Shown in pieces: positions 1,021 through 57,073 of a stretch of 64,000 nucleotides of DNA. Where the stretch lies: positions 86,062-150,061 of the forward strand of contig RHPI01003516.1 of the NCBI GenBank assembly GCA_009103225.1, given 5' to 3'. How positions within the stretch are numbered: position 1 is the stretch's first letter; each line of letters starts with the position of its first letter. Origin of the DNA: Chlorokybus atmophyticus (Eukaryota > Plantae > Mesostigma and Chlorokybus algae). Under the pieces are notes generated by a model, which saw nothing but the letters and a program-made list of their open reading frames with translations, did no database searches and was not told where the DNA came from. The position numbers and the translations under genes were made by a program.

Positions 1021-1362
1021 ATGTGCGCAGCGGCAACGCAAAGCGGTGTGGTTCGTGTGCCCGACAAGGCGAGGCAGCTGTTTGGAGTCATGGCTCTGAT
1101 CCGGGAGGGCAATGGGCCTTGGATGGAGTGTAAGATGCTAGTGGATTGCGGCGCGAACAGCAACTTTATAAGTCGTGAGGTTGCGCGTCGGCACAAGTGG
1201 CTGTCATGGGCAAATGCTGGTTCGGTGGCTCTAGCGGACGGCTATGCACCAGTAGGAGGAGCTTCTAAGCAAAGCAAAGAGCTTGAGATGCACGTGGGGA
1301 TGATGAAGGATCGCCTACGCTTTTGCTGCATCGAGGTGAACAATGGCTTTGATGGCATTTTA
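1021..1362 (+). pseudogene. Ty3/gypsy aspartic protease fragment, truncated at about 1362
   Basis: 'MLVDCGANSNFIS' catalytic motif and '...FDGIL' end. The sequence then switches to a G-family terminus. Confidence 0.8.
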
Positions 1363-1463
1363 CTGGTCAGTGACGCGCGGGTCGCCATGCTGGTAAGCCG
1401 GGCGAGGGTCTCGCTGTAGGCATGCCCGATGACGACTGGCATGCCCAAGCGATAGGCATGACA
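1363..1463 (-). mobile_element. About 100-bp remnant of a G-family A terminus inserted into the integrase of another G copy
   Basis: The reverse complement begins TGTCATGCC at 1463 and aligns with the A starts at 2451, 15851, 27120 and 29200. Confidence 0.75.
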
Positions 1464-2168
1464 AGTATGAGAAGAACATCTGGGACGACCACCTTCCGTG
1501 GGTGGCTCCTGGATACCGATTGTCAGAGCAGGCGGATCTGCGCGAGTACAGCCCATACCTGCTGATTGGGCATCCGCCATTGCTTCCGTTTCGTGCATAG
1601 CAGGAAGTAGACCGTGTGGTAAACAACCTCGACGATCTTAACTGGATGCACCACAACATTACCACACGCGCCACGCTGTTCGAGCATACCGTCCCGATGG
1701 CCTTCAACAACTTGCGCATCGCACAGCACCGCGACACCCTGCACTACAAGCGCGTGCGGAGCGGCTTCTATAAGGAGCACCAACGGCGGTTTTAAGCAGG
1801 GGACTTTGCCTACCGCATGGCAGCCACCAAAAACACGCTCGACACCTCCGTGGGCCGCACCGTCTACAAGGTACTCAAGGTGTACCCCACAGGAGTGGAC
1901 CTCCTTGTCAGAGTGGCGAGAGGTGAACTGCGCGCCATGTCACCTTCCTTACATAGCGGGCTTTGCGCACATCTAGCACCCTCGCCCCGCCCGCAGCACA
2001 CGCTGTAAACGCTGCGGCAGTGCCGACGACAACGCACTCATGATGCTCTGCAATGGCTGCTACAAGGGCCTGCATTGCTACTGTCTGGAGCCCCCATTAG
2101 ACGCGATACCCATGAAGGGGTACTAGTGCAATGATTGCTGCACCCACGGTCCTCCTCACCTGGGTTAA
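1464..2168 (+). pseudogene. G-family integrase C-terminus plus PHD finger, decayed
   Basis: Colinear with the 3' end of ORF 17164..21402 (WDDHLPWV..., FEHTVPMAFNNLRIAQHRDTL..., CGSADD..LMMLC.GC..G.HCYCL). Contains stops and frameshifts. Confidence 0.9.
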
Positions 2169-2213
2169 TAGCTGAGCTATGGAGCTGGAACCTCCCTAGA
2201 AGCTCAGGGGGGG

Positions 2214-2448
2214 GGGGCTTGTTGACTGTGTGGCCTACAGCACAGCATGTACACTAAGGAGGACACCGCCTCCACATGTCCGTGTGATTCAGCGACAGCG
2301 GAACTCCACCAAGCACTCCTCGCCATACAAGCTGGGTTATCTTTTATTTTATCTACATATTATGACATGTTGCAGCGACAGGGCTAGCAAGTGTAGCGGC
2401 CCGAGACAGTGTGACCCTCGACTCTCCTCGACCCGGCAGCTGTCATGC
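2214..2448 (+). repeat. G-family B repeat, internal copy B1
   Basis: Follows a G-run PPT and starts with the 14-bp r motif (GGGGCTTGTTGACT). Direct repeat of 3031-3270; homologous to 16879-17118 (minus). Confidence 0.85.
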
Positions 2449-2450
2449 CT

Positions 2451-3044
2451 ACTGCCCACGCATACCAGCTTTCATAGAGCATGGCTACATCGAAACCATC
2501 GCCCGGCCTACCAGCATACCATCGCGCACGTCACTGACCAGTAGCTAGGTCATGACTCCAGAGTAGCTCACGACCATAGCCTACATAGGCACCGCGCGTA
2601 GCTGTTTAGTTGTGAGTTCGGTTATAAGGTGTGTTCTATATTGAGTGACAATCGCTGTGGAAATAGCCTCGATATAACCGTTAGCTTGTGTTCTGAAACA
2701 GTCATGATTTGACCTGTATCAATAGTCAAAGTGTTCACCGGATCAGCTGGTGACACTGTGAGTGCGAAAGCTAAGAGCTTGTGAAACGACTTAAACTGCG
2801 AACACGCCATCCCGGTTACCAAGAACCCCCTCACTGTGTGAGAGCCGGTGCAAGCTCGTGTGTGCATCGTGCTTGTTATCGTTGTGAGCTTGGTGTGCCT
2901 GGTTGCAGTGTGTTTGTTGGCATTAGTCAGGGCATAATATCCACGTGTTGCTTGCCCATTCACCTCACTTAACAGTGTAACACATTTTTCGCTCATGCAA
3001 AGAGCTGTGTAAACAGCACTACCTATAGTAGTGGCTTGTTGACT
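2451..3044 (+). repeat. G-family A repeat, internal copy A2
   Basis: Starts TGTCATGCC, is closely similar to 29200-29792, and ends in r (GTGGCTTGTTGACT, 3031-3044). Confidence 0.85.
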
Positions 3045-3270
3045 GTGTGTCCTACAGCACAGCATGTACACTAAGGAGGACACCGCCTCCACATGTCCGT
3101 GTGACTCAGCGATAGCGGAGCAGCTCCACCAAGTACTCCTCGCCATACGAGCTGGGTTATCTTTTACCGCTGCTACATGTTATAACATGTTGCAGCGACA
3201 GGGCTAACAAGCATGTCTCTTCCTGTAGCGGCCCGAGACAGTGTGACCCTCGACTCTCCTCGCCCCGACA
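3031..3270 (+). repeat. G-family B repeat, terminal copy B2
   Basis: Direct repeat of B1 ending ...CCCGACA. It is followed directly by copia integrase-region sequence on the opposite strand. Confidence 0.8.
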
Positions 3271-12018: not shown

Positions 12019-12632
12019 GACGTGCCAGATGGTGGTACATAAATGATGACGGTGGACACTGACCTGGACTTTTGTAGCAGCGGCGACCCTTATCCCCGGG
12101 TAAGACTTAGTGCTGTTTTTGAGCAAATCTTTGTACTAGGATACGAGATTGACTACAAGTGTACTGCGGATGCGTGTTGTTTTGCAAGGTCTTTATGCGA
12201 GATTAACAAAAGACGGTCAAGCCATTGAGAAGACTCGGAGGTGTTAGCCATTGCTGCCATTGTAGCCGTGTACGACCAGAAGTTATAAACTAGGGCATGT
12301 TATGAATGACATCGAGCTTGGTCTAACAATGTACGCTAACGAAGACATAGTACGGGCAAAGTGCAGCAAGCAAGCAAATCAGAGCCGCAACAAGCAAGCC
12401 TTGCAATATGTGATCGTAGGCCCTTGATGCTAATGTCACAGGCGGTGCAGGTTGGATCATGGCTGAACCGTCGCAATTGGTGGGACAATGGCAGCCGGGA
12501 AAGCGGCATCTATGTCTGTTCCGGCAGTGGCAGGGCCCTCACCAGGACAAGTAATTGCTATGAAAGACGACCCCGACTTTGGCACTGAATTGGAGATCAT
12601 GCAGTATGCCAAGGGCGACTTAAAACCTACAC

Positions 12633-13195
12633 TGTAACGTGGGGCTTAGCCGACTAAGCCATGGTAGCAAAAGTCGCTGCCATGAGAGGTTGTGTATTGC
12701 TTATTAATGCTTCATAAGCCCTTCTTAGCCTATTCCACATTAACCGGCATTACATTCAACCCGGCTTTAACCGCGATTGTACCTGCACATCTTGGCCCTT
12801 CATGACCGGCAGGACTTGCTCGCGTCCGGTCATGACCAGCCATTAGCCATTACCGGTCATGCCGCGTAGTTTTCCGCGGCGACTTGCCACGTTGCCGCGC
12901 GCAGGAGCGACTCTGCGCGCCGACTCAGTCAGCTTCACCTCACAGCTTATTATTAACCATTCACACTAACTGCTTTGGATCGTTTCCGACGGTCGCCAAA
13001 AATCTACCCACTCGCGCGCATCTTGCGCCCGGTGGGATTTGATCCCGCGACCTTTAGAGCTCCGATTACCAATGTAACGCGGGACTTAGCCGATTAAGCC
13101 ATGGTAGCAAAAGTCGCTACCATGAGAGGTTGTGTATTGCTGAATGAATGCTTCATAAGCCCTTCTTAGCCTATTCCACATTAACCGGCAATACA
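12633..13195 (-). mobile_element. TRIM (563 bp)
   Basis: 122/123-bp direct repeats at 12633-12754 and 13073-13195 with TGTA...TACA ends, TSD TACAC/TATAC, PBS-like TGGTAATCGGAGC on the minus strand, and no ORF. Confidence 0.85.
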
Positions 13196-13824: not shown

Positions 13825-15851
13825 GGACGGTCCAGGATGCGGGCCCGTCGTGCGGCCGTCTTGATCTCAATCTCTGCAAGGGGTCAGGTTAACGATCACC
13901 AACTCAGGCTCCTCCTCCTCTGCCCTATCGATGGCTGCAGATATAGACAAGCTAGTGACTATAGCGGGAGCGGCATGTGGAAAGACGGCTGCTGGACTAT
14001 GCAGCGACGCAGATGCTATGGTGCTGGCGAGCTCGCCATAGCCATCAATTCGATGCAGATCAGCAACAAACTTGCAGACATCGTGTGCTTCATGGTCCAT
14101 ATACCAAGCAGCAATGTGGAAAGAACTTATCTGATCAGTCTTTGTTCTTCAAAGCTTGATGTCACATCTTAAAATAGAACTTGATGATGAATTCGTCCAA
14201 CGAGGTGGTGCCAGCACGTCTGGAGAATCGCAGGGATGTGGTTGAGCTGGAAGACTCCATCTCGTAGTCATCGCTATCGGACGATTGTGGGAAAGCTCGA
14301 TGGCGAGGAGTAGATTGGAACGGTGGAAGCCGGAGACAGAATGCGAGCCTCTTCTACTGCGATTGCTGCTCTTGTCGCTGGTCCGCTCGTAGATGAGATC
14401 GGAGGTTGGGCTCCAGCTGCTAAGGTCACCCTCTATTAAAGAGAATGGGGTGTGTCACAGCCCATTCAACCACAAAAGACTTAGTGCTTTTATCATCGAT
14501 TTATGGTAATTTAACGTACCTTCCCGTTACATCCCCCCCACTTAAGAACGCTGACGTCCTCGGCAGCTGGCTCGCATCAGCTGGGGAAGCATCCCAGGGG
14601 TCTGATCAGGGTTGGTCACCGGCCCCACTGCCCAAGAACCGGCCAATGTAGGCCCATACCGATCAACGCGCGCATAGTGCGCCGCTGCCGGCCCCACAGG
14701 TCTCGTCGCCGCGATAGGTAGGTCGAGCCCTGCCGCACCGACTGAACTGGTCAGTTCGGCGCGACTGCCATTAGGCAAGTCGCGACCCATCGATAATGGC
14801 ACTTATAAAGTGACCATTTACGATGTTATTAGATGGAGAAACAATGACCGCGGAATTCGTGTGCAAGGCAGGAATCAAACCCGGGTCTCAAGCTCCGATG
14901 ACCAATGTCACAGCCCACTCGACCATAAAAGACTTGGTGCTTTTATGGTCGATTTGTGATAATCTAATTTACCTTCCCGTTACAGGGTGGGCCTGTTCAT
15001 ACTGCTAGTCTACAGGTGAAAGTGTATGCAAGGTAGAGTGCTTGTGCTCTACCGTCTGTCGTGATGCTGCTACCACTGACCACACTAGTGCTTGTGTGCA
15101 CACTATGTGACGACAGTGGCAACGCAAGCACGGAGATGTATCCCCAGGTACAGACTGCACTACATGATTCAGAATGCGACGCACTCACGGAAGCAAAGAG
15201 GATGACACTATGAGTAAACAAGCCACTACAATAGGTAGAGCTGTTTACAAAGTTCTTTGCAAGAGTGGATGATGTACTACACTGTGAAGTGAGGTGAATG
15301 AACAAGCAACTCAGAGATGCTTTGTTCTAATTGATGCAGCAAACACACCATCACCAAGCTTTCAACAATAGCAAGCACAGCGCACAAGAGAATACATTGT
15401 GTCTCACGTGGTAAGGCACTCCTTGGCAACCAGAGGCAATCCTTCCAGTTCAAGTCGCTTCACAAGCTCTTAAAGCCGGAGTCTCTGCTCTTAAAGTTCA
15501 CTCACAGGGTCATCAGCAAGTCTGATGACATGACATCTTACTTATATATGTTAAGTCATGACTGTGCAGTGCCACGCGAGCACCAGGCCAACGGTCACAT
15601 CGAGACCGTATGCTACCACGAAAATGTCTTAAGACCACATATAGCATTTGAGCTAATAATTGATTCCTAACTAATCAGCTACGCTTCCTACAGAGAGGTC
15701 TATAGAGTAGCCCTAGCTACATGCTACATGGAATACGAAGTAGCTAGCAGTGGACTGGGGCGCGCGCAGTCTTTATACTGGTAGCCCGGGCTTGGGGCTG
15801 GATGTAGGCATGCTCGAGGAGGACTAGCATGCGAGGGTATTTGGCATGACA
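13825..15851 (-). mobile_element. G-family copy 2: A end, leader and 5' gag, truncated
   Basis: Starts TGTCATGCC at 15851, has r at 15213-15226, and gag homology to 25336-26256. Interrupted by a TRIM. Confidence 0.85.
14453..14984 (-). mobile_element. TRIM (532 bp) inserted at the G gag start
   Basis: 79-bp repeats at 14453-14531 and 14906-14984, TSD GGGTG on both sides, PPT AGTGGGGGGA (minus, next to 14532) and PBS-like TGGTCATCGGAGC. Confidence 0.92.
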
Positions 15852-17163
15852 ACTGGATGCTGGTGTGCTTAGGGAGCATTATTTCTTTGTGCAGTATCCA
15901 AGTATCCCTGTCTTCCATTGTTTCCTTTGTATCATGGCAAGATTAAAAGCAACTAAGGTGACGTCCACACATTGCTTCTTGCCACAGGGGGTGATATCTC
16001 AAGGAGGTGCCATCCCAATCTCGGTGTCTGCCGGTACTCACCGCGTCTTTTACAATCAAAGACTCTTTTAAATGGTAAAGAGCAATGTATGGAGAAAATC
16101 TAAACACTGGCACATTGTATTACCTACTCGCTAACGAAAGGTTGGCAATGATGAGTCTTAAAGTTGAAGAGTATTTGCAAGCTTTTGCGCATAAGTTGTT
16201 TGAAAAGCTGCCGCGTGTGTGGCAGCGCTAACACCTGCAACACAAAGCGATGCTTGTATACTCCGCATCATTTGCATGTAGGCTCTTGAGCTGCCGGTTT
16301 AGTAATATTTAGTTTCAAGTAAGCACGGTTGTGGTGCCTAGTTTACAGCCTTCATCTTGCAGACAATGTCGGTAACAGCGGTGGTGAAGGCGTCCGTCGC
16401 AACCGGTGAAATCTTGCTTCACACTTCTTATACGAATTTGTTAGCCACAATATTAATCACACCGCGTATAGCATCAGCACAAGCACCACCACGGGTTATG
16501 CTGATCACTTTAGTAGTTCATGGGTCGACAGCAGGAGCATGGGGACCGTCCACATGCATACACGCACAGTTTTGCATCACCAACAAAAGAATTTGGCAAC
16601 AGCACAAACCGCTTATCCATGCTATGCGTTGAGCCGCACCCACCTTCGCCGTGTAGCGCCTCAGTTGCTTGAGCTCAACGCACAACCATTACATGCGCTA
16701 GACCTATAGCGCAGAACTGCAACTGGCGTGAAAAGTGATGACAGGACTGCAAACAGCGTTGTACATAGACGGCATCACAGCAATTGTGCACATGCACCAA
16801 TTACTGGTTGCCAGTGAGTACCACCCCGATCATTACCCCAAGCCTGCGCATTATTTATTCATGCAAACACAAGCACCTTGTCGTGCCTGTCATGGTCGAG
16901 GGCAACCTTGTCTCGGACAGGCTGCAGAGGAGTGCTAGTGCTGCACGCATGCTAGTGCCGTGCACTGCATTGGAGTCATGCAAGCAAAAGACAACCCCCC
17001 AATCGTGGGCATAGGCTTGAAGATGAGCCTACGCGGTGTTTAGTGCAGTGGACGAGCCGATGTTGCTCGCCACCTTTGTGTACAGACTGTGTCGTAGTGC
17101 ACACAGTCAACAAGCCACCCCCCCTGAGATTCTGGGGTAGCCCTCTGCTCCAGAACTCAGTTC

Positions 17164-20100
17164 CTACCGACTGTGTGGGGGACCGTTGATGCGGCAGTCA
17201 TCGCACCAGTACTCCCACAAGGGTACTGCGTCCAGTGGAGGGTCAAGGCAGTAGCAGTGCATGCCTTGATTACAGCCGTCGCATAACATCATCAATGGGT
17301 CGTCGTCGGCGCTGCCACACTTCTCGCATCGGGTGCTGCGCAGCGGACGCGGGTGCTGGATCTTGGTGAAGCCAGCAATGTAGGGGAGATGACAGGGCGC
17401 ACAGTTGACCATGTTGTCCTTCATGCGCTCGCCTCGTTGTCCCAACAGGTCCAGTACCCCTGTGGGGTGCACCTTCAATACCTTGTAAACAGCACGCCCG
17501 ACGGAGGTATCGAGGGTGTCGCGTGTAGACGCCATACGGTAGACGAAGTCTCCTGACTCGAAGCGGCGCTCCCGCTCCTTGTAGAAACCACTGCGCACAC
17601 GCTCGTAACGCAGCGTGTCGCGGTGCTGCGCGATGCGCAGGTTGTTGAAGGCCATGGGGACTGTGTGTTCGAACAGCGCACTGCGCACTGTCAGATCATA
17701 CAACATCTCGTCGGGGTTGTCGAGATTGTCCACCACTCTGTCGACCTCCTGCTGTGCGCGGAAAGGGAGCAATGGCTGCCTTCCGAACAGTAGATAGTAT
17801 GGGCTATACTCTCGCAGGGCTGCCTGCTTGGACAGCCGGTAGCCCATTGCTACCCATGGGAGGTGATCATCCCAGGTATTCTTCTCGTAGGCGAGGACGT
17901 ACTTGCGCAGTGCCTTCTTGATGGTCTGCACGGTACGCTCGGCGAGGCCGTCGGCCTGCGGGTGGTCGCGTGAGGTGCGACGGTGGTCGATGAAGCATCT
18001 GTCGATAAGCTTGTCGAAGGCTCCTCTGAACTCCGTACCCTGGTCGGTGATGACTTCAGCGCAGCTGCCGAAGCGTCCGAGTACATGGGAGAGGAAAGCC
18101 TGGGCTACTCCCTCACTGCTCTTGTCGGGCAGGGGCACCAGCTCCACCCACTTGGAGAAGTGCTCGATCATGACGAGGATGTAGCGGTTGCCTCGCGCTG
18201 AGGGCGCTAGGTCTCCGAGGATGTCCAGTCCCCAGCGGTAGAACAACCCGGAAATGGGAAGGGGATGCAAGGTGGCATTGCGCGTGTTGAGGCTGGCGCG
18301 AACCATGTCACACTGCTGACAGTTGCTGACGAACTCCCGCACCTGTCTGTGCACCCCATACCACCAGTACTGGGTCCTGACCAGGCTGACCGTGCGCTTG
18401 ACACCGAAGTGCCCGAGCTCGGTGTGAAGGGAGGAGATGATGCCTTCACGTGCAGCTGGTGTGGGGACCTCCTGATCTGCATCTTGTATCCGTCGATACA
18501 GCCTGTCGTTGGCCCAGCGGTAACGCTGAGTGCGTTGCCGGACGCGGTCCTTCTCGCGTGCGCTCATGCCTGCTGGAAGTTGTCCAGTCTGAAGCAGTGC
18601 GAGCGATGGCTCGTCCAGCCAGATGTCTTGTCGTGTGTCGGTGGGTGCCAGCTCCTCATCATCCACCTCAGGGTCGGCAGCGATTGCTTCTTCTGATAAA
18701 GGATCGGTGGTGGTGATGGCGGGCTCGAGAGCGGGCATGTCCCCGTCTGCTGCTGCCTCAGCGATCTGAGTCCTGCGTCCTGAGCGTAGCGCAGCGACAG
18801 CGAACATGGTGGCCACACCTGAAGGTGCAGCTGTAGGACCCAACTCATGTCGGGCGCCTGTGGCGTCGTTGGTGCTGAGGTGGGGGTTACGGCTGAGGCC
18901 ATCCGCATCCTGGTTGGCAAGGCCTGCGCGGTGTTCCACCTCGAAGTCGTACTCCTGGAGCAGCAGCGCCCATCGTGCTAACTTTCCTGTCAAGTGCTGG
19001 TTGTTCATTAGCCACTTGAGGGGTTGATGGTCAGTGACCAGTTGGAACTGCCGTCCAAACAGGAAGGGTCGGAAGAAGGAGATGGCCCACACTGCGGCGA
19101 GACACTCCCCTTCGTAACTGCTGTAGTTGGCCTCAGCACTGTTGTTGCTGCGGCTGGCGTACGACACTACGCGCTCCTTCTTGTTGTTGTCGTGCTGTAC
19201 GAGCACGGCCCCCATGCCGAGCTTGCTCCAGTCTGTGTGCAGGATGAACGACCTGGTGTAGTCAGGGCGTTGCAGAATGGGAGCTGTGGTGAGGCGGAGC
19301 TTCAGCTCCTGAAAGGCCTCCTGTTGTGCCTCCTTCCACAAGAACTCGGTGTCCTTCTTCAGTAGTTCGTTGAGAGGCCTTGCGATCTTGGCAAAGTCCT
19401 TGACAAACCGGCGGTAATAGTTGGCAAGGCCGAGGAAGGCCCGCAGCCGCGTGAGGTCTGTGGGGGCAGGGATAGCCACCAGTGCCTCCACTTTGGCCTG
19501 CTGTACGTACACACCATGGGGCACAATCATGTGTCCTAGGTAGGGTACCTTGTGGGTGAAGAAGGTGCACTTGTCAGGGTGCACCGTCATCCCGACTTCC
19601 TTCAGCCTCTGTAGCACCTCTTCGATGTGCTGGAGATGCTCCTCATTGCTGTGACTGAAGATGAGGATGTCGTCGATGTAGCAGCGCGCGAAGTCCAACC
19701 CCTTGAGGGCTTTGTCCATGACGCGCTGGAACTTGGCCGGAGCGTTCTTCAGTCCGAAGGGCATGACCTTCCACTGGTACAGCTGCCGGTTTCCCCAGAA
19801 GGAAGTCTTGTGCTTGTCCTCCTCCTTGATGGCGATCTGGTTGTACCCTTGGCGCATATCCAGGATACTAAAGACCGTGCAGTCTCCTACATCGTCAAAG
19901 ATGCCTTCTGCGGTAGGCATTGGATACCTGTCCTGCTTGGTCTTGTTGTTGAGGGGGCGATAGTCGCCACACATGCGCCGGTCTGTCCAGTTGCCTGCTG
20001 AATCTTTCTTCAGGGGCATGACGGTCGCGGCCGCAAAGTCCGATGTGGACTCCTCGATCAGGCCTGCATCTAGCAGCGCCTTGCACCTCTGTTCCACCAA

Positions 20101-21402
20101 GTCTTCTTCTAGCTTGGAGAGGCGGTACTGTCTTCTGAACACCGGTTCGGTGTCCACTAGTTCAATGTCCATCTGGTATGCTGAGCAGATGCCCAGCTCC
20201 TTCACACTGAAGCTGAATTGGCTCCTCCACTTGTTGAGGAGAGCCTCGAGTTGCTCTCGAGTCTGGCCTGTGGCCAGCGGTCCAATGGCGTGGGACCACG
20301 AGGTAGCGTTGGCGACCACTGGAATGTCTTCCACAGTGACTGCTGCCTGCTCCTCCATGTGGGCGGTCTCGAGGGCGGTGTGTGCTGCTTTGGTCTCTGA
20401 AAAGCGAGCAATCCACCCCCCAGCCAGGTGTTCGAGCTCCTGGAAGGACACATGGCGGTCCTGGAGAGCAAAGCACATTTCCAAGTACCACACCATGCTG
20501 TTCTGATCCATGGCGCGCCCCAACAACTGACATTGTTGACTGGTTGTCAGCGTGGAGCCTGTGATGCTGCTTGGAAAGAATCCCATAGCACGCTCGCGCT
20601 CGCGGGCATTGGGTTCTTCCAGCTGTCCAGTGTTGGAGTCCAACACCATGCCGTCGCCTGCATTGCGGAACGCGTAGGAGCCTGGATAGGATACAAGTGT
20701 GGGTAGCGCGCGGCGCGGCTGACCAGGCTGGTTGCACTGGTAGAAGTGGTGGTGGTCAAGGCGTGTGACTGGTTGCGCTGTGCGTCCAGGGTCCAGGATG
20801 TCATCGACGACGAGATTTCGTGGCCGATTGCTGTATAGGTACTCTGCCAGAAACAGGTCTTCCACAATGGCCAGGTTGGTCCACTTGGCGCGGACGCGGT
20901 GTGCACGAGATCCATGACGCGCGGCGTTGATTTTGAGAGGATGCCCCAGCAAGGAGCATACTTGCCGATAGGCCTTGGCGACGTGGTGCCGCTTGTCATC
21001 CTCGGAGTGCACATTCTCGATGATGTACCCCAAGGGTTTAGCGATCTGACTGATCTGTAGGAGTTTGATGACTCTCATTAGCTCCCAGAACAGCTGTGAG
21101 CGAGGATCCGAGAGCCCTTGGCCTCTGCCTGCCCTGGAGTGCCCTTGACACTCCCACCCTGCTATCAGCAGGTCAATGTTGCCGACTGCCTGCAGGTGAT
21201 CCTTGGTAATCCAGCGGATGTCCTGCGGTAGAGCCTTCTGGCTCCCTTGCAGTGCCGACAGCGGTAGCTGCTGCGGGTAGCGCTGGTGCAGCTGTCGTAA
21301 ATGATGGCTCAGAGCTTCCTGTGCATGAGGCATGAGGGTCAGGGTCACAGTAGAGGTACTTGGTGACTGTTGTTCCTGTGTTGAGGACAGCCGCAAGCCC
21401 AC
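17164..21402 (-). CDS. pol: G pol: C5 cytosine methyltransferase, RT, RNase H, integrase and PHD finger
   Basis: 1412-aa open frame with MTase motifs (GWECQ, ENV, RVRAKWTN, ERERAMGF), RT 'YIDDILIFS', RNase H 'LHTDWS...YEGECLA', IN HHCC plus D,D35E, and a C4HC3 PHD. Confidence 0.95.
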   Translation of the reverse strand: MGLRLSSTQEQQSPSTSTVTLTLMPHAQEALSHHLRQLHQRYPQQLPLSALQGSQKALPQDIRWITKDHLQAVGNIDLLIAGWECQGHSRAGRGQGLSDPRSQLFWELMRVIKLLQISQIAKPLGYIIENVHSEDDKRHHVAKAYRQVCSLLGHPLKINAARHGSRAHRVRAKWTNLAIVEDLFLAEYLYSNRPRNLVVDDILDPGRTAQPVTRLDHHHFYQCNQPGQPRRALPTLVSYPGSYAFRNAGDGMVLDSNTGQLEEPNARERERAMGFFPSSITGSTLTTSQQCQLLGRAMDQNSMVWYLEMCFALQDRHVSFQELEHLAGGWIARFSETKAAHTALETAHMEEQAAVTVEDIPVVANATSWSHAIGPLATGQTREQLEALLNKWRSQFSFSVKELGICSAYQMDIELVDTEPVFRRQYRLSKLEEDLVEQRCKALLDAGLIEESTSDFAAATVMPLKKDSAGNWTDRRMCGDYRPLNNKTKQDRYPMPTAEGIFDDVGDCTVFSILDMRQGYNQIAIKEEDKHKTSFWGNRQLYQWKVMPFGLKNAPAKFQRVMDKALKGLDFARCYIDDILIFSHSNEEHLQHIEEVLQRLKEVGMTVHPDKCTFFTHKVPYLGHMIVPHGVYVQQAKVEALVAIPAPTDLTRLRAFLGLANYYRRFVKDFAKIARPLNELLKKDTEFLWKEAQQEAFQELKLRLTTAPILQRPDYTRSFILHTDWSKLGMGAVLVQHDNNKKERVVSYASRSNNSAEANYSSYEGECLAAVWAISFFRPFLFGRQFQLVTDHQPLKWLMNNQHLTGKLARWALLLQEYDFEVEHRAGLANQDADGLSRNPHLSTNDATGARHELGPTAAPSGVATMFAVAALRSGRRTQIAEAAADGDMPALEPAITTTDPLSEEAIAADPEVDDEELAPTDTRQDIWLDEPSLALLQTGQLPAGMSAREKDRVRQRTQRYRWANDRLYRRIQDADQEVPTPAAREGIISSLHTELGHFGVKRTVSLVRTQYWWYGVHRQVREFVSNCQQCDMVRASLNTRNATLHPLPISGLFYRWGLDILGDLAPSARGNRYILVMIEHFSKWVELVPLPDKSSEGVAQAFLSHVLGRFGSCAEVITDQGTEFRGAFDKLIDRCFIDHRRTSRDHPQADGLAERTVQTIKKALRKYVLAYEKNTWDDHLPWVAMGYRLSKQAALREYSPYYLLFGRQPLLPFRAQQEVDRVVDNLDNPDEMLYDLTVRSALFEHTVPMAFNNLRIAQHRDTLRYERVRSGFYKERERRFESGDFVYRMASTRDTLDTSVGRAVYKVLKVHPTGVLDLLGQRGERMKDNMVNCAPCHLPYIAGFTKIQHPRPLRSTRCEKCGSADDDPLMMLCDGCNQGMHCYCLDPPLDAVPLWEYWCDDCRINGPPHSR

Positions 21403-24400
21403 TGCCTATGCCTCCGAACAGCTCCAGCACGGTGATGCCTTGTCGTCGGCGGAACATGTGGAACTCCACAACTCCCGTAGCTATGTGGTACTGATCCTGT
21501 ACTGTAGCCTGGTCTTTGTAGGCAGGGAAGTGTGCAGTGAGCTGAGGCCTGGTCAGCAGCATGTGTGCTGCTACTTGTGCGCTCCAGCGACGCTCGGATG
21601 GCTCCTGAAAGGCCACTTCTTTGGTGACAGTCTCCTGAGACTCATCGTACGGTGTAGGGGAGTCCTCTTCAGCGTTTAGGCTCGGGCTCGAGCTCGTTGC
21701 AGTTGTCCTTGGCTGCGTTCGGGCACGAGGCACACGTGAGCTTTTTGTAAGACTGTAGGTGGCTGCTGCAGCCGATCTTCGTTGCGAGCGGTCCTTGGCC
21801 ACCAGTTCGAGAGGTAGGAATCCCTGCTCCTCTCCATCGTCCTCATCCCAATGTGGTCGAAACCATGCCTGCTCAGTCCAGCAGTCCAGCCCCATGCCGA
21901 CAGGGAAGTTGCAGTCCTGTCCCAACAGTAGGTCAAAGGACCCGGCATCGGTGACCACACACCTTTGTACAATCTCGGTGCTGTGGGAAGGGTTTAGTCC
22001 GGTGAGGCGGATGCTCACAGCCTGCTTGGTAAGGCCGAGTACCTTGTCACGGTTGCCGGTTGCGGTGTCCAGCTGATAGGGACAGGGAAGCAGCTCAGCG
22101 CTGGTGATGCCGAGATCTCGTGCGAGGTAGCGCCCAATGATGACAGGCTGTGCTCCAGTGTCCAGCATCACGCATTTGGGTGCCCGCCCATTGACGGTCA
22201 CGTGCTTGCCTTGGTTGGCAATCATGGCTGCATTGGCGTTGATGCGCAGCCTCTTGAAGCGACGGAACCTCTTGCGTGGAGAGACTGTTGCTTTATTCTC
22301 ATCTGCGGGGCCTGACCGTAGGGCAGCCAGGGCTCCTCTGCCTGATGGATCTTGTGGGCCTCCTTGTCCTCGGCTTTGTCCAAACCGTCCTTGTCGCGGT
22401 TGCTGGTACACGCGTGGTGGCCTAGGCACTGGAGGTGCTGCTGCCACCTGTCCAAGTGGAGGTGCAGGAGGGTTGACCCTCTGTACAGCTGTTGTCATGC
22501 CAGGAGGAGTGGCCAGTGGCTGTGGCGGGAACCCTGGAGGACCTGGTGTTTGCGGGACTGCCTCTCGTGCAGCCTGCTCCTCTGCATAGGTCCATCGCAC
22601 AGCATGGGCTGCCTCTCTGACTAGTGTACCTTCCCATGTCGCCGTCGCATTGTTGTCCGCATCTATATAGCGATGGTTCTGAGGCATGGGCTGCAGGTAC
22701 ACTGCGCGTAGGAGCCGCGCTCTCATGTCGTGGGTGATGATGGGCACCCTGAGGATTACTGCCATGTAAGCATCCCATCTGCCGTTGACCACTCCCACTT
22801 CCAGCACTGTTATTGCTCGTGTGCGTACAGTGAGCTGGGTCTCTGGCTGTTGAACATGCTGCTCGTAAGCAGTGGCGATGCGCCTGCGCTGACGTCCTGC
22901 CTCCACCCCTGGCAAACTCAGTATCGCCTCCAGAGCTCCCTCCAGAGTGTCAGTGGCGGCGGAAGCCACTTCATCATAGGCTTGCCGTATGGAGCGAAGG
23001 AATGCGTCCACCCACGCTATTCTGGCGCCGAAAGCGAACAACGGGACTGCGGGATGGTTGGTAACCAGCCACGTCACTAACCGTGCGCGTGCCGCGTTGC
23101 CACTGTCTCGCATCCCAAGCATCTGCCGCAGTCCGATGCCTTCTTGCCGATGCAGCATGGTTGCTTGTCGCAACAGAGCAGTGCGTAGTTGTTGCTCTCC
23201 AACCAGTCCTGCTCCATCTCTTTGTGTACACCCTTGTGGTGTAAGGTAGCCCCTCCCTGGCTCCCTTTGGTCCTCAGGTAGATCCTCCACCAGCGCAGGC
23301 AGCAACGGGGCGATCACCCCCCTGGTTTGTTGAGCCAACGCCCTCGCTTGGTCAGAGTTGGTCCCGACGAAGAGCGGAGTGGTGCTGGAGGATGGACCAG
23401 CAGTTGGTGACTGAGGTATTGGTGCACGTGTAGCTTCAAGAGCTTGTTCACGTGCAGCAATGGCGGCAGCTTGATCCTGTCGCCAATGATATGCTTGTTC
23501 CAGTGCGTGGTAGCGCTGATGAAGACGAGCGGTTGTAGGAGGTCCGAGTGCTTCATCAGTGCCCAAAGGCAGGTCGGCTGCGTCGGCGATTCGCTGCTGG
23601 ATGGCGTCTCGGCGGTCCCGATACGTGTCCAACGGGCTGGGTTCAAAGGTGGTGGTTGGCATGCGTGCAGGCTGGCGCGGGGCGGTCTGCATGTTGTTGT
23701 GCAACGCCCAGAACAGCTGCAGAGCCAACTCCAACACTACAGGTGGGCTGTAGCTGATCAAGAACACCCTGTCACGCATCGGGGGTGCAGTGCCAGCAAG
23801 GATCTCATCTTCTAACTGGTGTTGAGTGAGTGCTGGAAGGGTGTGAACCTCTGGCAGCGGGAAGACGCGATCATCGCGGGCGACACGCGTGGTGCGCTCC
23901 CCCCCCCGACCGAAGGCGATGGTAGTGGGGTCTGCTCCGCGCAGGATGGTTTCCCATGCTCGTTCAGCTTGCTGACCAGTTGGGACAGCCTGAGTGACGT
24001 CGAGAGCGGGCAGAGTGGCTGCGCGCGTCGCTGCAGAGACAGCGGGCTCGACGATGGCCATTGTGGCAGTTGCGACGGTATCGGTCAGTGGTGCGAGAGT
24101 TGTCTCAACGCCCCCGGACAGAGGCGCTGCTGCAGTGGGAAGTGCACCGCCCACTGGTGCAGATTCGGTAGTGATGGCGGCTGCTGCCAGTGTGCTCACC
24201 AGCGTTGGCGTCACGGTGCCCACCGGTGTACCAGGTCGTGGTGCAACTGGAGTGGGTAATGCTGACGTTGATGGAGTCGATGTTGTAGCCGGTGTGGCTG
24301 TTGCTGCGGAGGCAGCACCACTGGTGGCTTCGGAGGAGGTGCCTGCTAATGTTGTTGCAGCTTCCCCTCGTGCTCGTCGTGATGGTTGCACGCGGGACGG

Positions 24401-24520
24401 AGTGTTCCTGTCTCTCTCGCGTTTTGCAGCCATCAGCGCCCATCGGGCCGTGTAGCAGGCGCGGTAGTCCTGCTCCTTGTCTTCCTCCAAGCGTGCCATG
24501 CGTGCCATTAGGGCTGCCAT
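21173..24520 (-). CDS. G polyprotein middle part: Ala/Thr/Pro-rich region, unknown domain, aspartic protease and MTase motif I
   Basis: 1115-aa ORF with 'VMLDTGAQPVIIG' and 'VLELFGGIGSG'. It joins the pol frame if the tandem CATGAGG duplication (21324-21337) is collapsed. Confidence 0.9.
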   Translation of the reverse strand: MAALMARMARLEEDKEQDYRACYTARWALMAAKRERDRNTPSRVQPSRRARGEAATTLAGTSSEATSGAASAATATPATTSTPSTSALPTPVAPRPGTPVGTVTPTLVSTLAAAAITTESAPVGGALPTAAAPLSGGVETTLAPLTDTVATATMAIVEPAVSAATRAATLPALDVTQAVPTGQQAERAWETILRGADPTTIAFGRGGERTTRVARDDRVFPLPEVHTLPALTQHQLEDEILAGTAPPMRDRVFLISYSPPVVLELALQLFWALHNNMQTAPRQPARMPTTTFEPSPLDTYRDRRDAIQQRIADAADLPLGTDEALGPPTTARLHQRYHALEQAYHWRQDQAAAIAAREQALEATRAPIPQSPTAGPSSSTTPLFVGTNSDQARALAQQTRGVIAPLLPALVEDLPEDQREPGRGYLTPQGCTQRDGAGLVGEQQLRTALLRQATMLHRQEGIGLRQMLGMRDSGNAARARLVTWLVTNHPAVPLFAFGARIAWVDAFLRSIRQAYDEVASAATDTLEGALEAILSLPGVEAGRQRRRIATAYEQHVQQPETQLTVRTRAITVLEVGVVNGRWDAYMAVILRVPIITHDMRARLLRAVYLQPMPQNHRYIDADNNATATWEGTLVREAAHAVRWTYAEEQAAREAVPQTPGPPGFPPQPLATPPGMTTAVQRVNPPAPPLGQVAAAPPVPRPPRVYQQPRQGRFGQSRGQGGPQDPSGRGALAALRSGPADENKATVSPRKRFRRFKRLRINANAAMIANQGKHVTVNGRAPKCVMLDTGAQPVIIGRYLARDLGITSAELLPCPYQLDTATGNRDKVLGLTKQAVSIRLTGLNPSHSTEIVQRCVVTDAGSFDLLLGQDCNFPVGMGLDCWTEQAWFRPHWDEDDGEEQGFLPLELVAKDRSQRRSAAAATYSLTKSSRVPRARTQPRTTATSSSPSLNAEEDSPTPYDESQETVTKEVAFQEPSERRWSAQVAAHMLLTRPQLTAHFPAYKDQATVQDQYHIATGVVEFHMFRRRQGITVLELFGGIGSGLAAVLNTGTTVTKYLYCDPDPHASCTGSSEPSFTTAAPALPAAATAVGTAREPEGSTAGHPLDYQGSPAGSRQH

Positions 24521-24697
24521 ATGGTCATCAGCTGGTGGGTTGGCTGAAGCCTTGGCGGCAACAGCAGCAGCGCGCGGACGTGTCTCTGGTCCCTTACGCT
24601 GAGGAGGTCTGTTCTTCCCCCTGTAGCCTTGCTCTTCCTTGCGAGCACTGGCATTGTTGTTGTTGTTACTGCCACCAGCGTTGTTGCTGTTGTGGGC

Positions 24698-26256
24698 TCA
24701 AGTGTTGTTGCTATTGTAGCCACTGAAGTGGTTGCCAGTGTGGCCCCCAGTGTTGTTGCTGTTGTAGCCACTGAAGTTGTTGGCAGGGTGGTTGTAGCTG
24801 TTGGCGGGCCTCAACTCTGGGAACTTGAGCCAGCAGACTGACTCCAGATGACCAATCTTGTGACAGTGGTCGCAAACCAAAGTTGAGTATTCTTCGGTGC
24901 ACTCCTTTTGGTAGTGCCCATGCCGTCCACAGCGATGACACAGCACAGGGGCAGCAAGTGCAGCATGAGCTGACCGTTTCCCTTTGTCGCGTGCTGGTGG
25001 AGCGTCCCGGCCACGGTCGCGGCGAGGAGGCTCAGTTGTCGTGCTGACTACAGGCCGTACGGCTCTGCGGTTGGTGTCCAGCACTGCCTTCTCATACACC
25101 AAGCGCTTGTGGATGGCTTGTGCAGTCTCGAAGGCTTCTTTGAGAGTGTAGCCAAGGGGCCTGCTGTAGTTCAGAGTCAGGCGTGTCGACTCGCTCAGAG
25201 CAGCATCCAACTCATTGACGTATATTACTACAGCAGCCTCCTCACTGACAATCTTGTAGTCAGTGTCTTTCAGCAGACCTTCCAGTCTGGAGTATAAGCG
25301 GAGGGGATCCTCATTGGGCTTGCGTCGGAAGCGTCTCAACTCCTCAACCTTGCTGGTGGTCTGAGGAGGGAAGGTACGAGGAGGTAAGGTACGAGGAGGT
25401 AAGGTAGGCGCAGGGCAGCGTACAGGTCCTTGAGTGGAGAATCAGAGATGGCAGCACCTACGGTGATGGCTGGTGCGCGCAGTGCTACTGACCCGAGGGT
25501 GAAAGCGCTGCCTCCTGCACGAGAGCCAGGTGTTGCTGGAGGTAGAGGAGTACCCCACTCTGCGGCTGCCGCTTGCTGTACAGCTCTTTGTTCCTCAATG
25601 ATGATGGCAGAACGGTCAAGGATGCGGACTCGACGTGTGGCCTCCTTGGACTCAACTTCTGCAGGGGTCAAGTTGACAAGTACCAACTCTGGTTCCTCCT
25701 CCTCTGCCTGCTTGAGAGCGGCAGCTATGGTCAAGCCTGTTACTGCAACTGAAGTGGCAGGTGGAATGACACCTGCTGGACGGTGCAGGGATGCAGATGC
25801 TATGGTGCTGGCAAGCTCGCCATAGCCGTCTACTCGATGCAGTTCAGCAACGGACTTCCAGACATCGTGTGCTTCATGATCAAGATACTGAGCAGCAATG
25901 TGGAAAGAGATCTCATCTGACCAGTCTTTGTTCTTCAGTGCTTGCTGCCGCATCTTGGAGTGCCGCAACTTGATGATGAACTCATCCAGCGAGGTGGTGC
26001 CGGCACGTCCGGAAAAGCGCAGGGATGTGGTTGAACTGGAAGATTCCATCTCGTTGTCGTCGCTGTCCGATGATAGTGGAGAAGCTGGAGGACGAGGAGT
26101 AGAGTGGAGCGGGGTGAAGCTGGAGATGGAGCGCGAGCCTCTGCTGCTGCGGTCGATGCTTCCGTCACTGGTCCGCTCGTAAGTGAGATTGGTGGTTGGG
26201 CTCCAACTGCTGAGGTCACCCTCGTCTATTGGGGAGAACGGGGTGGGCCTGCTCAT
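24698..26256 (-). pseudogene. gag: G gag with two CCHC zinc knuckles
   Basis: ORFs 25336-26256 and 24698-25339 are split by a 15-bp tandem expansion at 25371-25400. Knuckles are CHRCGRHGHYQKEC and CDHCHKIGHLESVC. One in-frame TGA (24698-24700) separates this from the next ORF. Confidence 0.88.
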
Positions 26257-28235
26257 ACAGCTGGTCCAGAGGTGAAAGGGTAGAGTGCTTGTGCTCTACC
26301 GTCTATCCTGATGCTGTTACCACCCAACACACTAGTGCTTGTGCGCACTGTGTGATGACAATGATAACGAATGCCCAGCGATGTATTCCTGGGTGCAGAC
26401 TGAACTATCTGATGCAGATTGCAACACACTCACTTGTGCAAAGAGGGTGACACTGTAAGTCAACAAGCCACTACGATAGGTAGTGCTGTGGACACAGTTC
26501 TTTGCATGAGTGGATAGAATGATACACTGTTAAGTGAGGTGAATGAGTGTGCAACACGTGGATACAACACCCTGACTACTGAAACAACACACCACCGTCA
26601 AGCTCACAGCAATGGCAGGCACAGCGCACAAGAGTATGCACCGTGTCTCACGCAGTAAGGGAATTCTTGGCAACCGGGGCAGCGTGCTTCCAGTTCAAGT
26701 CGCTTCACAAGCTCTTTAGAAACAGAGTCTTTACTTCTTGGTACTCCTAGTACTCACAGTACTCACTTACAGTGTCACCAGCCAGTCTGGTGACGTGACT
26801 TCCTACTTATACATGTCAAATCATGACTGTGCAGTGCCACACGGGCACTAGGCCAACGGTCACATCGAGGCCTCATGCTATTTCGGAAATCTCCTAAGAC
26901 TTGATATAGCACATGTGTTCTTAACAGACTTGCAACTGATCAGCTACGCGCGGTCCCTACAGACAGGTCTATAAAGTAGCCCTAGCTACAGGCTACATGA
27001 GTGATACAGTAGCTAGCAGTAGGCTGGGGCTCGCGCGGTCTTTATGCTGGTAGCCCTGGCGTGGGGCTGGGTGTAGGCATGCTTGAGAAGAACTGGCATG
27101 CGAGGGTAGATGGCATGACAACCTTCCTGTGTGCACACAAGTACAGCCTTGCCATATGCATCAAGTAGTCAAAGAAGCCGAGTAGGCAGACAAATCGACA
27201 ATGCAGTCGACGAGAGCACGCTCACCCAACCATTGCAAGACGCCATGACATGACAAATGCTAACCACTCCCTGCTGCAACCCAAGCTGCAATATGGAGTG
27301 GATTCCCTTTCGCATCCATGTCTTTCCCAACCACAACAGTGACAACAACTAACAATTGATTTTGCAAGGCAAGGTAGGTGCAAGTGCACATATGTCAAGT
27401 ATTAGTTGTTGAACTGTGTGCGCTGGGGTGGGGGAGGTGGGGGGTATGTGCTTGCGCACGAGGCATGCATTAGCCATATGTTCACATGATTTATTGCCTT
27501 TTTTGCGACAGCTGCCGCACATGCCGTGTCGCTACACACACATTTTGTGATTGCGACTATTGTTGTTATTGTCGACATACATCTTCTGCTCTGCGGCACA
27601 AGCTGGAAACAAAGAAGCGCTCTCATGGGCTTATTGCCGCAGCCGGGTTGGCAACTGCTATGCATACCGTAGTAAGTGGCAATCAGCGGGCCAGAACAGG
27701 TGGCCACAATCAAATCAGCTGCGCCAGGATGCCAAACAACCGGGCTGCAGGTGTTCGCACACCGGCGGACTTTCATACCATTGCGTGCATTGTTTTGCTG
27801 CTATACACATGTTACATACATATGTTGTCATTCTTTGTGTTTTCGTTCAAGACATGCAGTGCTCAGATCTGCTAAACAGAGCAATCAGTTTGACTTCATC
27901 AATCGCAGTAAGCTCAGTCGGACTGCACAATCTACACCAAATGTATTGCCTTCATATATGTGCATGTATGCACGGCTTACCAAACAGCATGGCATGCTGT
28001 GGCATCAACTGTGCCCAAACTTTTGGCATGTCTTTCCAGAACTCAACGTTGCATCAATTCTTTTTGGTGCACATTGCTTTGTTGACCAAGGTACTGTGCA
28101 CCATAACGTGCACACACTACCTGATTGGCAGTGTGCTGATTGAGCACGTGTGCCAACATCATGCACACCAGATGTAAGCCCATCTCAGGCCTGCGCCCCT
28201 ATTCTTTCCTGGAGCACCTCATGTTACTTCAACCA

Positions 28236-29199: not shown

Positions 29200-31576
29200 T
29201 GTCATGCTTAGTGCCCACACATACCAGCCTTCATCGAGCATGTCTACATCAAAACCATTGCCCGGCCTACCAACATACCAACGCGCGCGCGTCCCTGACT
29301 ACTAGCTAGGTCATGACTCCAGAGTAGCTCACGACCATAGCCTACATAGGCACCGCGCGTAGCTATTCAGTTGTAAGTTCTGTTCTATATCAAGTGACAA
29401 TTGCTGTGGAAATAGCCTTGATATGACCGTTAGCTTATGTTCTGAACGGTCATGATTTGACTTGTTTAAGTAGTCATTGTGTTCACCGGGTCGGCTGGTG
29501 ACACTGTGAGTGAGAAAGCTAAGAGCTTGTGAAACGACTTGAGCTGCAAACACGCCATCCCGGATACCAAGAACCCCCTCACTGTGTGAGAGCCCGTGCA
29601 TGCTCGTGCGTGCATCGTGCTTTTCATCGCTGTGACCTTGGTGTGCCGGGTTGCAGTGTGTTTGTTGGCATCAGTCAGGGCATAGTACCCACGTGTTGCT
29701 TGCTCATTCACCTCAATTAACAGTATAACACATTTTTTGCTCATGCAGAGAACTGTGTAAACAGCACTACCTATAGTAGTGGCTTGTTGACTCACAGTGT
29801 CACCCTCTTTGCTATGGTGGGTGCGTTGCATTCTGCATCAGATAAGTGCAGTCTGTATCTGAGGACACGTCCCCGTGCATTCGTTATCACTATCATTACA
29901 TAGTGCGCACATAAGCACTAGTGTGGTGAGTAGTAGCGGCATTGAGACAGGCGGTAGAGCACAAACGCTCTACCCTGCATACACTTTCACCTTTGGACTA
30001 GCTGTATGAGCAGGCCCACCCCGTTCTCTTCAATGGACGAGGGTGACCTCAGCAGCTGGAGCCCAACCTCCAACCTCACCTACGAGCGGACCAGCGACAG
30101 GAGCAATGATCGTAGCAGCGGAGGCTTACGTGCTGTCTCCGACTTCATTCCGTTCCTGTCCACTTCACGGCATCGAGCTTCCCCACTCTCGTCCGACAGT
30201 GACGACTACGAGATGTAGTCTTTTAGCTCAACCACGTCCCTGCGTTTCTCCAACCGTGCTTGCACTACCTCGCTGGATGAATTCATCATCAAGTTGTACT
30301 CCAAGATGCGACAGCAGGCTCTGAAGAACAAAGACTGGTCAGATGGGATCTCTTTTCACATTGCCGCTCAGTATCTGTGTGACGGTGCTCGTGCCTTGTC
30401 ACCTGTGAGTTGGTCCAATCCACAACCCTCTCACCAAGACACGGTATTCACACCGGAACCTTGCCCCCTCTGCCAAGCACACACGCGCGCCCCGCCACTC
30501 GCGTACGCACGCGCATGCGCTCGAAGCTACACACCGACTTGTGTAGCGCCCTGGATCGTCACACAAGCAAGCACACACCAGTGGACACACGCTAGCAACC
30601 CCTTCTAGCCACCACCAAGCTTGCACACAAGAAACTAGGGAGCTAAAGGTTGTATTGCAAATTGTAGATTGTCACTTTTATACCTACCAGTCTGCACATG
30701 CTACTGTAGACGATTCTAGCGCTAGACGGAACAAGAAGCTAAGGTAGTTGCAGAATCTTGTATTACACTTCTAGAGCTTTCCAACGCACCAAAGATCTCA
30801 CAATTTGCTGCTCATATCAGTTATACTACTTGGCGCCAGGCCCTTCCAGAAATCTGGTCGAGCCCTTCTCGACTGGCCCTCCGTTTTTGGCACCTTCCGG
30901 ACTGGTCTTGGGGCCCCGGTCGATATCCGCGGCAAATCTCATAACTCGCCGATATCCGCCACAAGTCATAAAAAAACATGTATCTTACAAATAAGGCCTA
31001 AAACGGCCATGAAAATCATAAAATTTGGCCTTGACTGTTACAATCTGGATCATGAAGCACATGATGTTTGAAAGTCTGTTGCTGAACTGCATCGAGTAGA
31101 TGGCTATGGCGAGCTCGCCAATACCATAGCATCTGCGTCACTGTACAGACCAGCAGCGTCTTTCCACCTACCACTTCCGTTGCAGTCACCGGGTTATCCA
31201 TAGCGGCAGCTATTGACAGAGCAGAGGAGGAGGAACCTGAGTTAGCGATCGTCGACCTGACCCCTGCAAAGATTGAGATCAAGACGGCCGCGCGACGGGC
31301 CCAGATTCTGGACCGAATCTGTTGCCATCCTTGAAGAACTGCAGCCGTTGATGTGGGCACACCCCTACCTATGGCAACACCTAGCTCTCGTGCGGGAGCC
31401 AGTGCTTTCACCCTCGGGTCAGTGGCACTGCGCGCACCAGCCATCACTGTAGGTGCTGCCATTTCTGACTCTCCACTCAAGGATCTATACGCTGCACTTC
31501 GTCGCACCTTCCCACCGCAGACCACTAGCAAAGTGGAGGAGTTGAGGCGGTTCCGGCGCAAGCCCAACGAGGACCC
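29200..31576 (+). mobile_element. G-family copy 3: A end, leader and gag 5' half, cut by copia A'
   Basis: Starts TGTCATGCT, has r at 29779-29792, and gag 'MSRPTPFS' at 30006. Confidence 0.88.
30378..31042. mobile_element. Solo LTR (665 bp) inserted in G gag
   Basis: TGTGAC...GTTACA ends with TSD ATCTG at 30373-30377 and 31043-31047. The gag sequence resumes seamlessly after it. Confidence 0.88.
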
Positions 31577-36723
<5,147 letters not shown>

Positions 36724-37996: not shown

Positions 37997-38188
37997 TCAA
38001 TGTTAAAAGGTATTCAACTTTGTCGGCGTTTCATCTATTTTGCTAATTTAGTCATAGTTGACTATGTCGATGCATTGTGTGCAACCGGGCATTTCTAAGA
38101 GGTTGCCCTATTGCGGCAGTCGCCGGTTAGTGCTTGCGCGTCATATGTTTCCATTCCGCGCGGTACCCTACCAGTCGATGGGTGTTTA

Positions 38189-57024: not shown

Positions 57025-57073
57025 TTACCACGGGTTGCCTCTCGCATTCCTTAAAGCGCTTCACCACGCTCCA

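Follow-up and report, generated by a model that had tools for sequence, protein, structure and literature searches.

The window analysed here, a stretch of 64,000 nucleotides of the Chlorokybus atmophyticus contig RHPI01003516.1, contains the right end of a broken retroelement copy, hereafter designated G1, in which an integrase-PHD remnant and a G tract are followed by two repeat blocks, A and B, in the order B1-GC-A2-B2. This order, proposed in the initial annotation to follow the PHD region and the polypurine tract (PPT), was borne out by the sequence and by repeat alignments, as were the start of B1 (2214), the end of A2 (3044) and the limits of B2 (3031-3270). B1 ends at 2438 and A2 starts at 2441; the values first proposed, 2448 and 2451, were 10 nt too high. 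The features of the locus and of related copies in the window are as follows:

1361..1463, minus strand: first 103 nt of A, from another subfamily, reversed inside the G1 integrase gene; marks the G1 cut-off
1466..2168, plus strand: 3' part of the integrase and PHD finger of G1, frameshifted and with a premature stop; the 5' part of G1 is lost
2206..2217, plus strand: polypurine tract, a run of A and G, predicted plus-strand primer; at the same spot before B in the full-length copy and in relatives
2214..2438, plus strand: B1, opening with the motif r (2214-2227, 13/14) and closing in CA; predicted first part of the true LTR
2439..2440, no strand: GC spacer, centre of the att-like palindrome CA-GC-TG
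2441..3044, plus strand: A2, opening with TGTC; predicted rest of U3, R and U5
2731..2757, plus strand: hairpin overlapping the self-primer start; stem kept by paired changes in four A copies
2749..2763, plus strand: predicted self-primer of 15 nt, some 30 nt downstream of a TATA-like box; complement of the stretch behind 5' A copies
3031..3044, plus strand: single r common to A2 and B2, predicted joint of two cDNA ends
3031..3270, plus strand: B2, closing with GACA and followed by GCTC; right end of the inserted element
15213..15851, minus strand: 5' A copy of a further subfamily, with a compensatory change in primer and primer-binding site (PBS)
16879..27120, minus strand: near-intact relative, A-int-B in form, with a 4-bp duplication (AGGT) on its two sides
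29200..29804, plus strand: 5' A copy of the G1 subfamily, with r at 29779-29792 and the PBS at 29790-29804

Copy G1 is old and broken, its 5' part having been lost at the reversed A fragment of another subfamily. A self-integration of G1 was considered for this reversed piece (1361-1463) and rejected, as the piece is 22% away from A2 and B1 and B2 differ by just 8%. In the preceding region (1-1360), Gag and protease belong to another Ty3-type element, truncated at the end of the reversed A fragment, and the flank after B2 consists of Copia-like coding sequence on the minus strand. In tblastn, the G1 remnant at 1466-2168 exhibited 72-76% identity in two frames to the full-length Pol. Since the 5' end of G1 is gone, there is no left flank in which to look for its target duplication. 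The likeness between repeats is far beyond chance, with E = 2e-80 for B1 and B2 and E = 0 for A2 and the A copy at 29200. B1 and B2 are separated by 18 substitutions over 224 aligned bases, a 3-nt indel and a 12-nt indel, and A2 differs from the 5' repeat at 29200-29792 by 54 substitutions over 590 bases; A2 also matches two more A copies. At this locus, B1 and B2 are about as divergent (8%) as are A2 and another copy of the subfamily (9%). A TGTT at 2220 was rejected as an ordinary LTR start, the 5' copies being without B.

A motif of 14 nt, r, terminates every 5' A copy and opens every B copy in the window. It is found at A ends at 29779-29792 and 26471-26458 and, with one change, at 15226-15213, and at B starts at 17118-17105 and, again with one change, at 2214-2227. 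As claimed in the initial annotation, A2 and B2 are fused exactly through this motif, a single r lying in exact register at 3031-3044. The motif is alike at both sites across subfamilies that are 17-25% apart, and because the A end and the B start are inherited separately, this conservation suggests that r is under selection for exact closure. The B1|A2 junction of the window reads GGCA-GC-TGTC, one base short of a palindrome; the palindromic letter at base 2436 occurs in family contigs of sequencing runs X1 (two contigs) and X2 (seven contigs), and the r letter at base 2215 is read in family contigs of the same two runs. The B|A junction is bridged gap-free in one X1 contig (record 2; 2406-2517, 17 other letters) and the A|r|B joint in one X2 contig (record 15; 2957-3080, 19 other letters), the latter in register with the joint of the window, so that both arrangements exist in other copies. 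The match of runs X1 and X2 (shares 0.18 and 0.15) to the window is at the level of subfamilies; run X3 yielded three family pieces and run X4 none. The readings from these runs cover 40 variant rows out of 260 and 19 pieces out of 406. Folded as RNA, neither the A|B joint nor the B|A junction exceeded shuffled sequences (z -0.6, -0.7).

The coding capacity of the family is best seen in the near-intact relative, which, read from 27120 to 16879, starts with TGTC and finishes with GACA. Pfam searches of this full-length copy identified a CCHC Gag, an aspartic protease, a C5 DNA methyltransferase, RT, RNase H, an H2C2-rve integrase and a PHD finger, and the protease, RT, RNase H and integrase follow the order of Ty3/Gypsy elements. 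The methyltransferase (PF00145, E 4e-10) is located in Pol ahead of RT and is split over two frames, motif I closing the protease frame; motif IV reads W-E-C-Q, versus the usual P-C-Q, a variant common to many homologs. This domain is present in 13 of 15 two-ended related loci. The integrase carries a DDE triad (D1061, D1121, E1156), and its closest solved structures by sequence are the integrases of foamy virus (E 5e-21) and Ty3 (E 9e-21), both of which have one residue more between the second D and E. The shorter spacing (17164-21405, minus strand) recurs in 49 of 49 pattern-matched homologs, among the best 120 of the relatives listed, and is a possible clade marker near the target-DNA face. 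No tyrosine recombinase was detected by Pfam in any of the 21 frames of at least 120 aa of the full-length copy, 17 of these being without any Pfam match. Among 7990 scored candidates, 429 proteins matched Pol at E < 1e-100, and the best 120 of these include proteins of Klebsormidium, Pleodorina and Chlamydomonas eustigma; no relative was found in a collection of viral contigs.

By its domains, ends and duplications, and with RT compared by similarity search alone, the element is classified as Ty3/Gypsy. It has TG...CA ends and 4-bp duplications, which are AGGT at the full-length copy and exact in 11 of 15 relatives. Two like terminal LTRs next to the PBS and PPT are not what is found: insertions end in A and in B, and the full PPT-to-PBS unit, B-GC-A, is present once, internally. 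The Ngaro/PAT-like label first given to the locus is thus apt for the split-repeat layout A1-B1-A2-B2, but does not fit the DDE integrase, the 4-bp duplications and the lack of a tyrosine recombinase in the frames searched.

A scan of metagenome contigs revealed at least 494 relatives among the pattern matches listed (at least 606), and 78 loci were returned. These fell into 64 clusters at 97.5% identity over 800 bp, and the merging by eye of L036 and L043, which share a flank, left 63 insertions: 28 with a B|A junction, 22 with a terminal B and no A behind it (including L011, internally deleted and with an A|B joint) and 13 uninformative. All survey statistics concern relatives at 40-60% protein identity that have no r, most of them members of one low-GC family. 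The window is not alone in having a B-GC-A-B end: the B|A junction recurs in the 28 insertions. The GC spacer, expected to be invariant, is so in length, with 2 nt in all 28 junctions, but not in its letters, which are GC in 6, AC in 9, GT in 8, AT in 2 and AA, TC or TA in the other 3. AC, GT and AT are the products expected from decay of methylated CAG and CTG. Together with GC they account for 25 of 28 spacers versus 13 of the 44 flanks behind a terminal B end (Fisher p 6e-7), where GC itself occurs once. Decay at the spacer is somewhat above that at two other CHG sites in B (G kept in 14/28 and C in 16/28 spacers; 24 to 30/36 at the control sites). The spacer is also independent of the flanking DNA, as had been anticipated, being equal to its own B2 flank in just 3 of 22 insertions of relatives; the GC after B2 was rejected as a spacer source on this count, and its occurrence behind B2 in the window is best read as chance. 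The B|A junction forms a near-palindrome of about 16 bp that is the same in three families with otherwise unalignable repeats.

Fifteen insertions have both ends, eight of the form A-int-B-A-B and seven of the form A-int-B. An exact 4-bp duplication, of varied sequence among relatives, surrounds the whole unit in 11 of them and a duplication with one transition in two more; L007 and L008 are without one. At L007, the flanks hint at a decayed duplication of about 8 bp in place of 4 bp, whose left copy closes with AGC ahead of TGTC, like the att junction. In L075/L076, both ends seem to finish in A plus about 14 nt of B, the left one inverted, off the usual att ends. Within one insertion, B1 and B2 are sisters (3.2 transversions and indels, versus 6.2 between insertions; 0 of 100,000 permutations, 18 insertions), which would be expected of two copies made from a single template in the same round. 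Of the 22 insertions in which both B copies are present, 18 entered this test; left out were L044, L046 and L050, in which B is cut or split, and L068, which belongs to another family. No correlation was observed between A1-A2 and B1-B2 divergence (8 insertions, rho 0.21, p 0.61). Family insertions are A-int-B-GC-A-B units between 4-bp target duplications, and the locus at 2214-3270 is the right end of a broken copy of this kind.

The A|B joints of relatives are without r, ragged and with an overlap of 0-2 nt; across 23 insertions they vary between blunt ends, a 2-nt overlap, an extra G and deletions, and resemble end-joined 2-LTR junctions. Closure through r, put forward in the initial annotation, is peculiar to the window family; in its relatives, joining is ragged.

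Evidence on how the cDNA may be primed comes from A itself. The PBS is formed by the 15 nt behind each 5' A, beginning with the last three bases of r, and is complementary to the predicted self-primer (2749-2763 in A2). Three 5' copies of the window keep this pairing via compensatory changes, and two unrelated families among the relatives have their own primer and PBS pairs at the same place, giving pairings of 12-16 nt in three unrelated sequence families. The complementarity is clear in 14 of 17 5' ends and weak or misplaced in L045, L066 and L074. The TATA-like box suggests a putative RNA start at the self-primer. Folding of the hairpin at 2731-2757 gave z values of -2.7 and -2.6 in two A copies and of -0.9 and -1.2 in the other two. 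A tRNA primer was set aside, with no direct tRNA search, the internal complement accounting for the PBS. In LTR elements, cDNA starts behind the G tract and stops before the PBS. Applied to the positions of the G tract and PBS observed here, this logic identifies B-GC-A as the predicted true LTR, with r carried by both cDNA ends in the window family. The predicted cDNA ends would thus lie at r and not at the ends of the inserted element, which begins and ends at the B|A junction.

If a 2-LTR circle, with its pair of like junctions, were opened at the other of these, A-B-GC-A-int-B would result. This mirror form was never encountered, against eight A-int-B-A-B insertions (p 0.004, among the matches listed). 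Upstream of the 23 A starts that lie outside the 3' block, B was absent in every case over 250 bases (158 in L008), and the controls were positive in 5 of 5. The junction behind the G tract is always kept and the junction used is the one on the PBS side. The claim that the end arose from a circle opened at one B|A site therefore stands only in part: it accords with the non-unique end, the flank-independent spacer, the sister relation of B1 and B2, the outer duplication and the L069+L071 insertion (see below), but the missing mirror form (0 vs 8) and the left A starts preceded by B (0 of 23) leave a plain 2-LTR circle incomplete as a model. Timing is our guess as to the cause of this polarity: the PBS-side LTR would become double-stranded at once after the second strand transfer, and the other LTR would do so only once some 9 kb of plus strand had been made. 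A mark placed on the spared junction by the methyltransferase of the element is a purely speculative further cause.

One aberrant insertion, L069+L071, is particularly informative. L069 and L071 are 99.5% identical over a 2755-bp overlap and 88-92% identical to other copies, and thus represent one insertion. Its right side reads int-B-GC-A-PBS, then the first 176 nt of A reversed, stopping exactly at the A start; its left side consists of a reversed B end, with reversed B, G tract and 120 nt of interior, the PBS being joined via 5 filler bases. CATT flanks both ends, and the inverted ends (3358-3878 in L069 and 4827-5070 in L071) are halves of one inverted junction. In the simplest reading, plus-strand copying would have run on past the primer site and produced a second, inverted junction, at which integrase would have opened the closed molecule. 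This insertion supports self-priming and internal cutting at once, as a single event drawn from two samples.

From these observations, the following sequence of events is proposed. RNA would start at the 15-nt primer in A1 and stop in A2. The primer would then fold onto the site behind A1 and self-prime the minus strand, as in Tf1, and the G tract would prime the plus strand. The expected product is a linear cDNA with the true LTR, B-GC-A, at each end, opening and closing in r. Judging from the joint sequences, the cDNA ends would be joined via r in the window family and by ragged end-joining in relatives, creating A2|B2; this joining could precede or follow integration. The integrase would cut one junction after CA on both strands and join the halves to a target with a 4-bp stagger, GC being lost. 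The junction on the PBS side is used in every case observed and that on the G-tract side spared, the timing of the steps being conjectural. A-int-B copies could derive from a 1-LTR circle, from the cutting of both junctions or from later recombination between B1 and B2. Since the RNA start is placed inside A, only copies with a 3' B-GC-A would give RNA with U3 and a repeated R; A-int-B copies, without 3' U3-R, would be dead ends, yet able to supply proteins. This dead-end status and the one-step staggered cut, both suggested in the initial annotation, are predictions drawn from the anatomy.

It is likely that the DDE integrase cuts CA-GC-TG inside the LTR and not the predicted reverse-transcription ends. 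That it probably does so at one internal palindrome of the end-joined cDNA, an internal single-junction integration, is most strongly indicated by L069+L071. The broader account is offered tentatively, as a plausible reading that may well need revision: the att site would have moved from the cDNA ends into U3 in a green-lineage DDE-integrase lineage, each productive insertion would go back to one staggered cut, made in just one internal palindrome of the end-joined cDNA, strand history would pick the junction so that one intact LTR is kept, and r would have evolved for exact closure.

Several other origins of the B-GC-A-B end were weighed. Reverse transcriptase might jump from the right end of a linear cDNA to its left end, at r in the present family, and recopy B without any circle, the integrase pairing half-sites from two junctions. 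The observed polarity would result if only the plus strand jumped, and this scheme fits the exact joining through r as well as the abundance of A-int-B copies (22 terminal B ends with no A behind). We nevertheless consider it unlikely: the ragged joints of relatives, with extra bases or deletions, look like end-joining, and L069+L071, with its inverted B at the far end and its PBS join, needs a molecule closed around one junction. Elements of the IS3 type are copied out into a circle, and the A-int-B form could by the same token be the active one, its junction being regenerated by excision or a copy-out circle with a spacer taken from the flank. A-int-B insertions are indeed about as common as B-A ends (22 vs 28) and the near-intact copy of the window has this form, but a spacer that is fixed and unrelated to the flank (equal in 3 of 22) renders the idea improbable.

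An accident confined to the locus, in which a second element inserted beside the first and the interior was lost by r-r deletion, could explain why B1 and B2 are as far apart (8%) as two subfamily copies and why GC follows B2 as it follows B1. This event should have left a 4-bp duplication around A2-B2, where CAGC on the left and GCTC on the right reveal none. A fixed 2-nt spacer in 28 insertions of relatives, which have no r for such a deletion, the sister relation of B1 and B2 and the one duplication bracketing the whole unit largely refute it for the family, and it appears very improbable. Mobilisation of a circle junction by a tyrosine recombinase, the element's own or acting in trans, as in Ngaro/PAT elements, can hardly be entertained: the A1-B1-A2-B2 layout is the same (PMC4157794), but no such domain was found in 21 of 21 frames, and the element has an intact DDE integrase, TG...CA ends and varied 4-bp duplications. 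The preferred reading thus remains the cutting of one internal junction of end-joined cDNA.

Textbook LTR elements integrate with the ends made by reverse transcriptase, and the circle-junction route has long been rejected as the normal retroviral path. HIV integrase acting on circle junctions has reportedly been the subject of published studies. With the integrase of prototype foamy virus, cleavage of a palindromic LTR-LTR junction in vitro takes place after CA on each strand (Delelis et al. 2005, PMC1180852), and titles in the reference list of that paper present circle junctions as poor substrates in murine leukemia virus. The cut proposed here from sequence is similar, with cleavage after CA on both strands and two bases lost on integration; the foamy virus palindrome, however, is made by joining cDNA ends, whereas the present element carries its palindrome inside the LTR and its end joint is not the att site (PMC1180852). 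Self-priming of the Tf1 type has been described (PMC4600332, PMC6317226), and in Tf1/Sushi and Tcn1 elements, as here, the PBS is complementary to a stretch of the 5' repeat that lies some 30 nt downstream of a TATA-like box. Those elements have two ordinary LTRs, in contrast to the permuted repeats, methyltransferase and PHD finger, in place of a chromodomain, found in this family (PMC4600332, PMC6317226). By analogy, the element would be copied like a self-priming Ty3/Gypsy and cut as foamy virus integrase cuts a circle junction. PAT/Toc/Kangaroo, Ngaro and Viper elements have similar split direct repeats (A1-B1-A2-B2; PMC4157794), but the present element differs from PAT, Ngaro and Viper by its DDE integrase, G tract, TG...CA ends, 4-bp duplications and absence of a detected tyrosine recombinase.

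The closest published relative is KnitGypsy-Dnmt3 of Klebsormidium nitens, for which the legend of Fig. 4c mentions repeats arranged as in DIRS and Gypsy domains (de Mendoza et al. 2018, PMC5890265). Both elements have a DNA methyltransferase inside a Gypsy Pol and A-coding-B-A-B repeats (PMC5890265), an arrangement of which the 3' half is present at the window locus and which is complete in eight related insertions. In pairwise comparison, the K. nitens protein P0056 was 40% identical over 1329 columns that include the methyltransferase; the likeness concerns the protein and the published layout. In the literature searched, the name KnitGypsy was found in a single paper, whose passages on the element give no junction sequence, target duplication, priming mode, integration mechanism or PHD (PMC5890265). 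The layout has thus been in print since 2018 as one legend line, without explanation there. No published mechanism was found in the literature searched, outside of which fall most subscription journals, Repbase reports, the supplementary figures of PMC5890265 and the supplements of the preprint bioRxiv 10.64898/2026.05.21.726589.

If the proposed scheme is correct, the family uses an obligate circle-junction route and has converged on the PAT/Ngaro layout without a tyrosine recombinase. It would also offer a natural system for asking whether a retroviral-type integrase can normally act on one uncut junction, which has been addressed until now mainly in vitro (foamy virus and HIV circle junctions). 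Programs that find LTRs by seeking two like terminal repeats would then miss or misread a whole Gypsy clade, and about half of the intact-looking copies, those of the A-int-B form, could not replicate. This mechanism lends itself to direct testing through the junction rule, the self-primer, r, the polarity and the insertion with the inverted junction.

The window contains several other mobile sequences. A second element of the same family (58929-62007, minus strand) is interrupted by a near-perfect palindrome of 3.8 kb (55170-58935, 95%), whose outer 660 bp are repeated at 62032-62706. Copia elements with ordinary LTRs are present at 5133-10098, 31575-36727 and 47085-51989 and in the 3280-5130 region, one of them enclosing a 50-bp tandem array (34229-34786). 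Helitron-like Rep/helicase frames (39873-43538) lie between oppositely oriented minisatellite arrays with 12/18-bp units (38168-39180 and 44920-45670). Three small TRIM-like elements (12630-13196, 14453-14984 and 28231-28743) have direct terminal repeats of 80-125 bp and TG...CA-like ends, and a 16-bp palindrome with a CA-AT-TG centre near the end of a gag fragment (13736-13753) may correspond to two small elements back to back.
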